A stretch of 46,899 nucleotides of DNA from a virus (taxonomy: Duplodnaviria > Caudoviricetes). Where the stretch lies: positions 1 through 46,899 of IMG/VR virus record IMGVR_UViG_3300030433_000503; one strand, 5' to 3'. The number at the start of each line of letters is the position of its first letter. Within the stretch, counting starts at the first letter, position 1. A model generated the notes under the pieces. The model was not told the DNA's origin. It saw only the letters and a program-made list of their open reading frames with translations, and searched no databases. Both the position numbers and the translations under genes were made by a program. Positions 38,422 to 42,344 of this stretch are shown here, one piece after another.

Positions 38422-38465
38422 TCTAGTCTTGGAGCAGAGGTGGGTTTCGATTACCCACACTAGAG
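38422..38465 (+). ncRNA. Minimal tRNA-like RNA (acceptor stem plus T-arm, no anticodon arm)
   Basis: TCTAGT/ACTAGA stem, GTGGGT-TTCGATT-ACCCAC T-arm, 12-nt GG-containing linker, followed by CTA. Confidence 0.55.
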
Positions 38466-40184: not shown

Positions 40185-40247
40185 GGGTTAAAACACGAAG
40201 GACGGTTAATACCCCAGGAAGCGTGGGCACTGTGCACGGTGCAACCC
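40185..40247 (+). ncRNA. Putative structured RNA (three-way junction) upstream of the tRNA
   Basis: GC-rich; GGGTT/AACCC closing stem, CACG/CGTG stem, GCACTG-TGCA-CGGTGC hairpin. Confidence 0.4.
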
Positions 40248-40254
40248 TTAATAT

Positions 40255-40326
40255 AGCGGGATAGAGCAGTGGTAGCTCGCAAGGCTCATAACCTTGAGGT
40301 CGTAGGTTCGACTCCTACTCCCGCAA
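40255..40326 (+). tRNA. tRNA-Met(CAT), initiator-type
   Basis: Cloverleaf with 1:72 mismatch, GAGC/GCTC D-stem (A11:U24), CAAGG-CTCATAA-CCTTG anticodon arm, GTAGG-TTCGACT-CCTAC T-arm; CCA not encoded. Confidence 0.93.
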
Positions 40327-40985: not shown

Positions 40986-41444
40986 ATGGCAGAACTATTA
41001 ACAGATGAGATAATCATCGAAAAACTAAACGAAGAAGACGGTATTATGCAAGAGCCAGATGGTCCTTGGTTACGAGAATATCTATACGAAAATTATGGTG
41101 GTAGTCTTGATACTACTAGCGATTTTGTAGATGACAAATGGACTTTAAAAATATACAGCGAATCAACTTATGATGGCTATGATATATTTTGGTGTACATT
41201 TGATTCTAAACCTCATATATGTCAAGACGGTTATTACTATGAAGATTATTCTGACTGGTCTGAAAAAGCAATAGAAGAATTAGTTAATGGTAGTAATGTA
41301 TGGATAGAAAATCATATATGGGACGACATGGAATACGACTTTAATGCTGCACTAGAAGAGTGGTGGCAAGATATATATGAAGAGTTATATGAACAAAAGA
41401 AAGAAGAATTATTAGATACAGAAGAATATTATGAAGAAAATTAA
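40986..41444 (+). CDS. Highly acidic hypothetical protein
   Basis: 152 aa, D/E/Y/W-rich. Confidence 0.7.
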   Translation: MAELLTDEIIIEKLNEEDGIMQEPDGPWLREYLYENYGGSLDTTSDFVDDKWTLKIYSESTYDGYDIFWCTFDSKPHICQDGYYYEDYSDWSEKAIEELVNGSNVWIENHIWDDMEYDFNAALEEWWQDIYEELYEQKKEELLDTEEYYEEN

Positions 41445-41688
41445 CAGCACATTACCTGACTGGTTTAATGGTGAGGTATATGAAGAAGGTGAAACAATTA
41501 CTAATCCTTTTACTGGTGAGTCTTATGACTTAAACGCTGGTGAAACATCTATGTACGACTTAATTATGGGAATTAATTATGTTGGTGATCATAGAGGTTG
41601 GGACGATGAATTAATAGAAACACATCAAAAAGCTTTATCTTGGTTTAGAACTGTAAACCCAAAAGCTTATATGGTATTATTAGATTAA
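41431..41688 (+). CDS. Hypothetical protein
   Basis: 85 aa; NPFTGE...WFRTVNPKAYMVLLD. Confidence 0.7.
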   Translation: MKKINSTLPDWFNGEVYEEGETITNPFTGESYDLNAGETSMYDLIMGINYVGDHRGWDDELIETHQKALSWFRTVNPKAYMVLLD

Positions 41689-41694
41689 ACTAAC

Positions 41695-41790
41695 GGGCGC
41701 GATAAGGTATTGACCGAGACGTGGTAACAGTAAGCGTAAGCTGAATCCAACCGAGTCATGGTAACGCAGGTTCGAATCCTGCCGCGTCCA
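41695..41790 (+). ncRNA. Mini-tmRNA: tRNA-like domain with Ala identity and no normal mRNA-like domain
   Basis: GGGCGCG/CGCGTCC-A acceptor with G3-U70 and A73; unpaired D-loop ATAAGGTATTGA; helix CCGAGAC/GTCATGG; TAAC linker; GCAGG-TTCGAAT-CCTGC T-arm. Confidence 0.7.
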
Positions 41791-41804
41791 CTAAAATTTA
41801 AATT

Positions 41805-42344
41805 ATGGCAACAAGAAACTTAATAATGGTCGTAGACCGCAAACACAGTAGTAAATACCCAGAAGGTTTTGCTATACATCCTGATCTTGTTAGGCAACAT
41901 AGTTATGTGAATATGTACATGCACCATGACGGTTATCCTCAGTGGCAAGGTGTGCAAATTGCTAACTGGTTACTAGCAGGTAATAACGGGTGTCAAAATG
42001 GAAGTAGACTAGCATCTAAATTAGTACATGATATGTATTATGATAGTTGTTATCTATATCCTGATGCAGAAAATATAGATCACGAGTATAGATATATAAT
42101 ATGGACTGGTGACAAAGATAAAATACATGTAAGTTGCTGGAATCTTTACACTAATGATTGTGTATTTGTATTAAAACCTGAAAAGATTATATCTAAATAT
42201 TATGATGATATGGAATATACTGACTTTGCTAATGGTGAAACTAGAAATGGAGATAAAAAATGGAATAAAGATGATGTAGCAGAATATAATAGAATTAGGA
42301 GTCACGCTCAAAGAATAGTAGATATACTAACCCATGAAGACTAA
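41805..42344 (+). CDS. Hypothetical protein (MATR...HHDGYP type)
   Basis: 179 aa with YMHHDGYP motif. Confidence 0.75.
   Translation: MATRNLIMVVDRKHSSKYPEGFAIHPDLVRQHSYVNMYMHHDGYPQWQGVQIANWLLAGNNGCQNGSRLASKLVHDMYYDSCYLYPDAENIDHEYRYIIWTGDKDKIHVSCWNLYTNDCVFVLKPEKIISKYYDDMEYTDFANGETRNGDKKWNKDDVAEYNRIRSHAQRIVDILTHED

Follow-up and report, generated by a model that had tools for sequence, protein, structure and literature searches.

Maturation of tmRNA involves cutting by RNase P and charging by AlaRS, and its binding partners are EF-Tu and SmpB (as outlined in PMC3985003); its alanylation is governed by G3-U70 (reported in PMC9976931), and SmpB is contacted by tmRNA bases U17, G19 and A334, a G19C change abolishing binding, while helix H2 points out of the ribosome (according to the account in PMC8363625). 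An RNA comprising only the tRNA-like domain (TLD) has been described from mycobacteriophage DS6A, an 80-nt molecule that is the single phage example presented in PMC4131195 and PMC11915505, and a DS6A-like molecule is stated to inhibit tmRNA whether or not it can be charged (Mao 2009, as cited in PMC4131195). In organelles, the CDS-less tmRNAs of jakobid and oomycete mitochondria (RF02544) and the ∼65-nt forms of Mallomonadaceae plastids have no tag frame, represent the only tmRNA of their organelle and are mostly permuted, as summarized in PMC11915505. The sequence-only reading of the DNA considered here had placed tagless tmRNAs mainly in jakobid mitochondria; with the DS6A RNA, and the plastid and oomycete forms, already in print in these sources, the novelty implied by that reading was overstated. 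Plant mitochondrial t-elements place the top half of a tRNA at gene junctions without an encoded CCA, and need neither alanine identity nor SmpB-contact bases.

The window, by which is meant the whole stretch of 46,899 nucleotides analysed, from a virus record of the Caudoviricetes, encodes a conserved 96-base RNA corresponding to the tRNA-shaped head of tmRNA alone, with the alanine-identity bases present and the tag message absent. Its features and surroundings are as follows.

38422..38465 (+): 44-nt tRNA top-half mimic with a 6-bp acceptor, 6-bp T-stem, GG loop and CUA trailer, without alanine identity
40255..40327 (+): tRNA-Met(CAU), CCA likewise not encoded
41431..41688 (+): 85-aa gene upstream of the RNA, with its stop codon 6 nt ahead of G1; without a family
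41695..41790 (+): tagless, TLD-only tmRNA-like RNA gene, from G1 to discriminator A73 (fold; RF00023 score; covariation in 24 sequences)
41695..41701 (+): acceptor stem, 5′ strand, with G1 G2 G3 (24-homologue alignment)
41702..41712 (+): open D-loop of 11 nt without a D-stem, GG at 41706-41707 (sequence)
41713..41725 (+): arm (P2/H2-like helix), 5′ strand (11 pairs, covariation)
41726..41749 (+): internal loop, AGUA at 41729-41732 opposite GAA at 41743-41745, and variable hairpin at 41733-41742
41750..41762 (+): arm, 3′ strand (fold; covariation)
41763..41765 (+): AAC linker (AC before the T-stem in relatives)
41766..41782 (+): T-arm (100% of cells paired)
41783..41793 (+): acceptor 3′ strand (41783-41789, U70 = 41787), A73 (41790) and CUA trailer (41791-41793)
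41805..42344 (+): 179-aa gene downstream of the RNA, its start 14 nt after A73; no family

Judged by structure, the window RNA belongs with the TLD-only RNA of DS6A (read in L345). Both are phage-encoded and have G3-U70, A73 and an open D-loop ending in GAC, and in both a single closed arm and a T-arm are combined with the absence of a tag and with an A-CUA rather than a CCA end. Unlike the DS6A RNA, to which it is unrelated in primary sequence, the window RNA comes from a flavobacterial-type phage and is part of a clade-wide family (47-185 nt) whose arms are modular and hypervariable, whose subfamily around the window RNA has an AGUA/GAA loop, and which is accompanied by non-alanine mimics. 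With standard tmRNA (RF00023) it shares the TLD layout, alanine identity and D-loop and linker bases, but it is without pseudoknots, resume codon, tag and stop and scores under the cut-off, and the standard form was rejected for it. The lack of a tag frame is shared with the CDS-less organellar tmRNAs, in comparison with which the RNA here is a one-piece phage molecule that presumably exists beside an intact host tmRNA. It also resembles the t-elements described above, being a tRNA top half at a gene junction with no encoded CCA, although the companion minis fit that model better.

The predicted fold of 41695-41790 consists of a 7-bp acceptor, an open D-loop, one long irregular arm, a linker and a T-arm (-37.2 kcal/mol, z -3.47; 1 of 200 shuffles equally stable), and the tmRNA TLD layout that had been recognized from the sequence alone (acceptor, G3-U70, A73, open D-loop and T-arm) is present in both the sequence and the fold. 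CCA is not encoded, the gene reading A73-CUA. A 7-mer helix had been described after the D-loop; the helix exists, but it contains one A.A mismatch and forms part of the 11-pair arm 41713-41725/41750-41762, and the linker given as UAAC is reduced to AAC, as its U pairs with A19 in all 24 homologues. The middle of the element (∼35 nt) is structured as an internal loop and a 3-bp hairpin with a GUAA loop. By their spacing from the GG, U 41710 and G 41712 would be the equivalents of the SmpB-contacting U17 and G19 of tmRNA, A 41764 in the linker probably maps to A334, and the base at the A15 equivalent is U (E. coli tmRNA numbering). The AGUA/GAA internal loop fits the loop-E/bulged-G consensus. 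A mimic of the sarcin-ricin loop, whose consensus has AGUA/GAA one pair from a fixed GNRA loop, was rejected, the distal stem being at least 3 bp and its loop freely varying.

On the tmRNA model RF00023, the element scores 36.9 bits, under the cut-off of 47 and the sole match in the genome, and on the tRNA model RF00005 it scores 19.8 bits with its central part unaligned, where 29 bits are required; it is thus nearer tmRNA than tRNA, the two scores coming from two different tools. The check by Infernal-type models that had been proposed therefore gave no strong canonical tRNA match, and a canonical tRNA was rejected, D-stem and anticodon arm being absent and ARAGORN making no call. ARAGORN and Rfam at gathering scores, applied to the whole window, missed the element and returned the tRNA-Met at 40255 only. 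Ranked by E-value, cmscan put tRNA as the best clan match and omitted two overlapping clan matches, whereas the separate search with the tmRNA model filters differently; a control with RF00023 also gave scores under the cut-off in archaeal genomes, so that a sub-threshold match alone is unspecific. Short forms in the clade score 24.8-45.2 bits on the tmRNA model and lone T-arm fragments 12-15, and an 80-nt clade member of the same build (L362) reaches 65 bits, above the tmRNA cut-off. A permuted two-piece tmRNA was also rejected, since the standard order is found here and RF04321 gives only 10.1 bits, for the T-arm alone.

Close homologues were collected with a pattern comprising the D-loop, linker and T-arm, which left the acceptor free and hence unselected; 5 viral, 29 metagenome and 4 genome-contig matches (1 real, 3 chance) gave 25 distinct sequences, and 24 were aligned after removal of one truncated row. 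In this alignment 97.4% of cells pair and two-sided changes are seen in 9 of 27 pairs, values reached by none of 500 shuffles (a test inflated by relatedness), and slid-register controls pair only 31-46%. The covariation asked for by the earlier reading was thus found, with neither G3-U70 nor the helix lost in these 24 homologues. G1-C72, G2-C71 and G3-U70 are kept in 24/24, and acceptor pair 6:67 varies (U-A 11, C-G 10, U-G 2, unpaired 1). The 11 pairs of the arm helix are formed in 96.6% of cells, with two-sided changes in 3 pairs; all 4 pairs of the distal stem show such changes; and the fully paired T-arm contains one A-U to G-C change. The length of the distal hairpin is free among close homologues, and AGUA..GAA is kept in 30 of 31 members of the window's subfamily. 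The RNA gene lies between different gene pairs in different relatives and is therefore regarded as kept as a unit. A peptide frame of V-S-V-S-stop, suggested earlier for the central part, does not survive comparison: of 29 subfamily members that were translated, 11 have a stop, and no peptide is conserved. A candidate-finding model (R1), in which two pairs were mis-registered onto A.A columns and which was used for candidates only, found no strong match in the whole of Cellulophaga phage Calle_3 and half of MW202828 (best 24 bits), and BLASTN against cultured phages gave T-arm-level matches only, none covering 80%. The one real genome-contig member is on a MAG contig labelled Ilumatobacteraceae (L154) that carries the proteins of this phage clade; the contig is a piece of the clade that was probably misbinned, and its taxon label was accordingly not taken as the host.

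A wider search with a T-arm/acceptor pattern, in which U70 is fixed, detected at least 96 distinct family RNAs of 47-185 nt; ten loci were removed as outside the clade (eight with multi-kb flanks and no shared protein, two by eye), and loci with short flanks were retained without a check for shared proteins. Among the matches listed, G3 is present in 95 of 96, the trailer is CUA in 87, CAA in 9 and CCA in none, and AC precedes the T-stem in 91 of 95 scored members. The D-loop is succeeded by a closing helix of 4 bp or more in 91 of 94 of them, whereas only 19% of shuffles have such a helix. A 65-nt variant has A3-U70 and a 47-nt variant has no arm. In most members the D-loop is one base shorter than the canonical spacing. 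A short tag ORF was rejected for the family, only 1 of the 96 matches listed having a short ORF by the UA rule with a hydrophobic end; lengths modulo 3 are spread 28/32/36 among the same matches. The head is constant and the arm hypervariable and modular, with recurring modules, some of them nested. The window-type arm with its AGUA/GAA loop also occurs without acceptor or T-arm (L168:4683-4788, L170:4617-4701 and L238:2691-2735), and for other arm modules, too, copies are found both within TLDs and elsewhere, as far as imperfect masking allows.

An unselected survey used 80 loci chosen by their sigma-factor protein, 43 of which span the whole small-gene region, and a detector that gives a small bonus to G3-U70. 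A G3-U70/A73 element was detected in 29 of the 43 fully covered loci, and the same detector returned none in the other 14. In the 41 distinct elements from the 80 loci, pairs 1:72 and 2:71 are invariant (G1-C72, G2-C71), while pair 4:69 covaries four ways (C-G 26, G-C 8, U-A 4, A-U 3); the G19 equivalent is kept in 40/41, the A334 equivalent in 38/41 and both in 38/41. The alanine-identity pairs, as claimed from the single sequence and now seen as G3-U70 in all 24 close homologues with an unselected acceptor, and the bases matching SmpB contacts are thus under selection.

A search of 50 records other than the window (44 of the clade, 6 from outside it) detected no SmpB gene. The 27 clade genomes examined for a full tmRNA contained none, and in 24 clade records there was neither a tyrosine integrase over the cut-off nor a gene for a CCA enzyme or an RF-1-family factor. 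In the relative Calle_3, the corresponding arm carries a full tmRNA (L343:2950-3309). Nine long phage RNAs with the window-type acceptor stem (L210, L248, L205 and others) include eight that ARAGORN calls tmRNA, and their loci have no protein in common with this clade.

The window's 44-nt mimic at 38422-38465 lies directly after the first small gene, and its positional homologues (41-45 nt) have freely covarying acceptors, mostly without alanine identity; mini elements of 41-47 nt were found in 21 of the 43 fully covered sigma-factor-selected loci. A 47-nt class combines a fixed 15-nt core with swapped acceptor stems (L161:4045-4091, L174:6578-6624, L348:5054-5100 and L171:4065-4111), that in L171 joining the core to an alanine acceptor, and a mini of this kind may be nested in a TLD as its arm, judging from a loose contig end in run X4. 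A longer non-alanine class of 78-150 nt has a conserved motif 5′ of the T-stem (L348:4610-4687, L349:5934-6045, L351:4696-4795 and L377:814-899). Nearly all non-alanine mimics, including the longer classes, have the CUA trailer. The tRNA shape serves more than one use in this region, and because the non-alanine mimics share it, processing or carrier roles are kept in consideration below. Together with the swappable arms, the companion top-half RNAs suggest that these phages have a layer of small RNAs missing from annotation. TLD-like paralogues were also observed (L176:4379-4484, L191:2958-3022 and L356:1654-1757), one having A3-U70 and U73, another A3-U70, and the third standing for a further class of G3-U70 elements whose acceptor differs and which co-occurs with the main class in three loci.

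A PHROGs comparison covering 40 of 55 ORFs placed terminase, portal, GroEL/GroES and virion genes on the minus strand; on the plus strand, small genes of unknown function are followed by ligase, sigma factor, Erf and exonuclease. The RNA gene is located in the small-gene arm ahead of the replication genes, and from this position it would be transcribed early. Terminase matches in the cultured collection are phages of Flavobacterium, Cellulophaga, Tenacibaculum or Maribacter in 86 of 87 cases (one record is unassigned), and a flavobacterial host is therefore likely. No sigma-70-type promoter was listed at the 5′ end of the RNA, for which the consensus may not fit this host. A run search gave small-share runs only. 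Contigs from five RNA runs and one unlabelled run include relatives, some spanning either end of the element and none with an added CCA, such contigs carrying no ends, strand or level.

The reading we favour, with evenly balanced confidence, is that the RNA, once processed by the host and alanylated, binds host SmpB and is a tagless competitor of host tmRNA at stalled ribosomes. RNase P would cut at G1 of the early phage transcript, the trailer would be trimmed and CCA added by host enzymes, and host AlaRS would probably charge the product with alanine, after which it is predicted to bind host SmpB and EF-Tu. Alanylated RNA and SmpB could then enter the empty A site, where the nascent chain would pass to the RNA (one Ala) and the broken mRNA would be ejected; there would be no message on which to resume, and host factors would be required for release. 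Overall, tag-directed degradation would be reduced while the phage infects. Such sparing of proteins is not assured, because repeated entry could add several Ala, possibly itself a degron, and natural Ala-Ala tags are listed in PMC11915505. Counted for this reading are the tmRNA score exceeding the tRNA score, the conserved G3-U70, the outward orientation of H2, the 65-bit score of the 80-nt clade member, the absence of SmpB and of a full tmRNA from the phage records covered, the retained G19/A334 equivalents and the closing helix; counted against it are the 14 of 43 loci without an element, the shorter D-loop, U at the A15 equivalent, the A3-U70 and armless variants, the non-alanine mimics, and the consideration that alanylation could merely stabilise the RNA via EF-Tu.

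The RNA might be purely a sponge that titrates host SmpB (and EF-Tu) and switches trans-translation off without productive ribosome entry, for which the SmpB-contact equivalents are kept and no phage release factor that could complete a tagless rescue was found (0/24); inhibition of tmRNA by a DS6A-like molecule, perhaps via SmpB titration (Mao 2009, cited in PMC4131195 and PMC11915505), is in line with it. That inhibition is independent of charging, however, so that titration alone would not need G3-U70, and the near-invariance of the alanine identity therefore suggests that the RNA works charged, entering stalled ribosomes; we consider a pure sponge possible but unlikely. Alternatively, the head could be a processing signal or natural tRNA scaffold, marking the sites where RNase P and 3′ cleavage would divide up the early transcript and free a stable RNA, with the variable arm as cargo or neutral. 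The gene's close fit between its neighbours (6 and 14 nt), its varying position among neighbouring genes, the missing sigma-70-type promoter, an ATG directly after A73-CU in 13 of the 96 matches listed, the CUA trailer common to several non-alanine top-half mimic classes, and the recurrence of the window-type arm without a TLD in three contexts and of other modules in and outside TLDs all agree with such a role. Yet processing requires neither G3-U70 nor the G19/A334 equivalents, and the acceptor varies freely in the non-alanine minis but not in the alanine class, and a processing or scaffold role is accordingly judged improbable.

Hypervariable arms and several mimic classes would also fit an arms race in which the RNA diverts those host toxins or defence proteins whose target is tmRNA or the top half of tRNA, and CoCoNuT systems are described in PMC11090510 as carrying SmpB-like domains predicted to bind tmRNA; without an anticodon arm, however, the RNA cannot decoy anticodon nucleases, and a decoy seems distinctly improbable. 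That the element has no function and is either left over from a tmRNA integration site or a tRNA in decay is highly improbable: prophages do contain tmRNA fragments, according to PMC9004378, and there is a weak tRNA match, but both ends of the element are present and covary beyond all 500 shuffles, the family spans 47-185 nt without an anticodon arm, and no tyrosine integrase over the cut-off was found in the 24 clade records, so that an attachment-site remnant was rejected; the covariation already largely refutes this reading as a whole. The favoured reading of a charged, tagless competitor of tmRNA may be extended, tentatively and with no great likelihood, to a natural tRNA-scaffold display, in which alanylated tmRNA heads and non-alanine heads carry interchangeable structured modules, shuffled by recombination. 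These would act as decoys or effectors brought to SmpB, to stalled ribosomes or to defence proteins, and the alanylated head would serve in addition as a message-free rescue RNA that caps stalled chains with Ala.

The clade offers a natural series of ∼100 variants that retain the alanine identity and the bases for SmpB contact, with everything distal free to vary; charging is therefore argued to matter, and the series tells which bases to mutate. If the favoured reading is true, phages of a common marine group adjust the ribosome rescue of their hosts by means of an RNA missed by ARAGORN and by Rfam cut-offs. Literature searches returned no description of this RNA family; the tmRNA database behind PMC11915505, which could hold members, lay outside their scope.

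Further observations concern other phages and the surroundings of the RNA gene. A first broad scan gave 119 matches, most of which were without a 5′ acceptor strand and were set aside; L002, L012, L034 and many more are, by eye, apparent acceptor pieces of permuted phage tmRNAs, standing directly behind a TTGAC..TATAAT-type promoter (also by eye). Other short G3-U70 TLD-like RNAs occur in phages that may or may not belong to the clade (L029:390-495, L051:387-484, L075, L109:291-370 and L019:391-475), and the elements of L029, L067 and L091 are located within a tRNA array. In the window, a very acidic 152-aa protein encoded near the RNA (40986-41444) is conserved in the clade, has no family match and is possibly a nucleic-acid mimic. 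A conserved structured motif at 40186-40250 (+), usually found just 5′ of the tRNA-Met and with no Rfam match at cut-off, includes a variable insert; in most copies the loop of its hairpin contains the palindrome GUGCAC, through which a kissing-loop dimer could possibly form.
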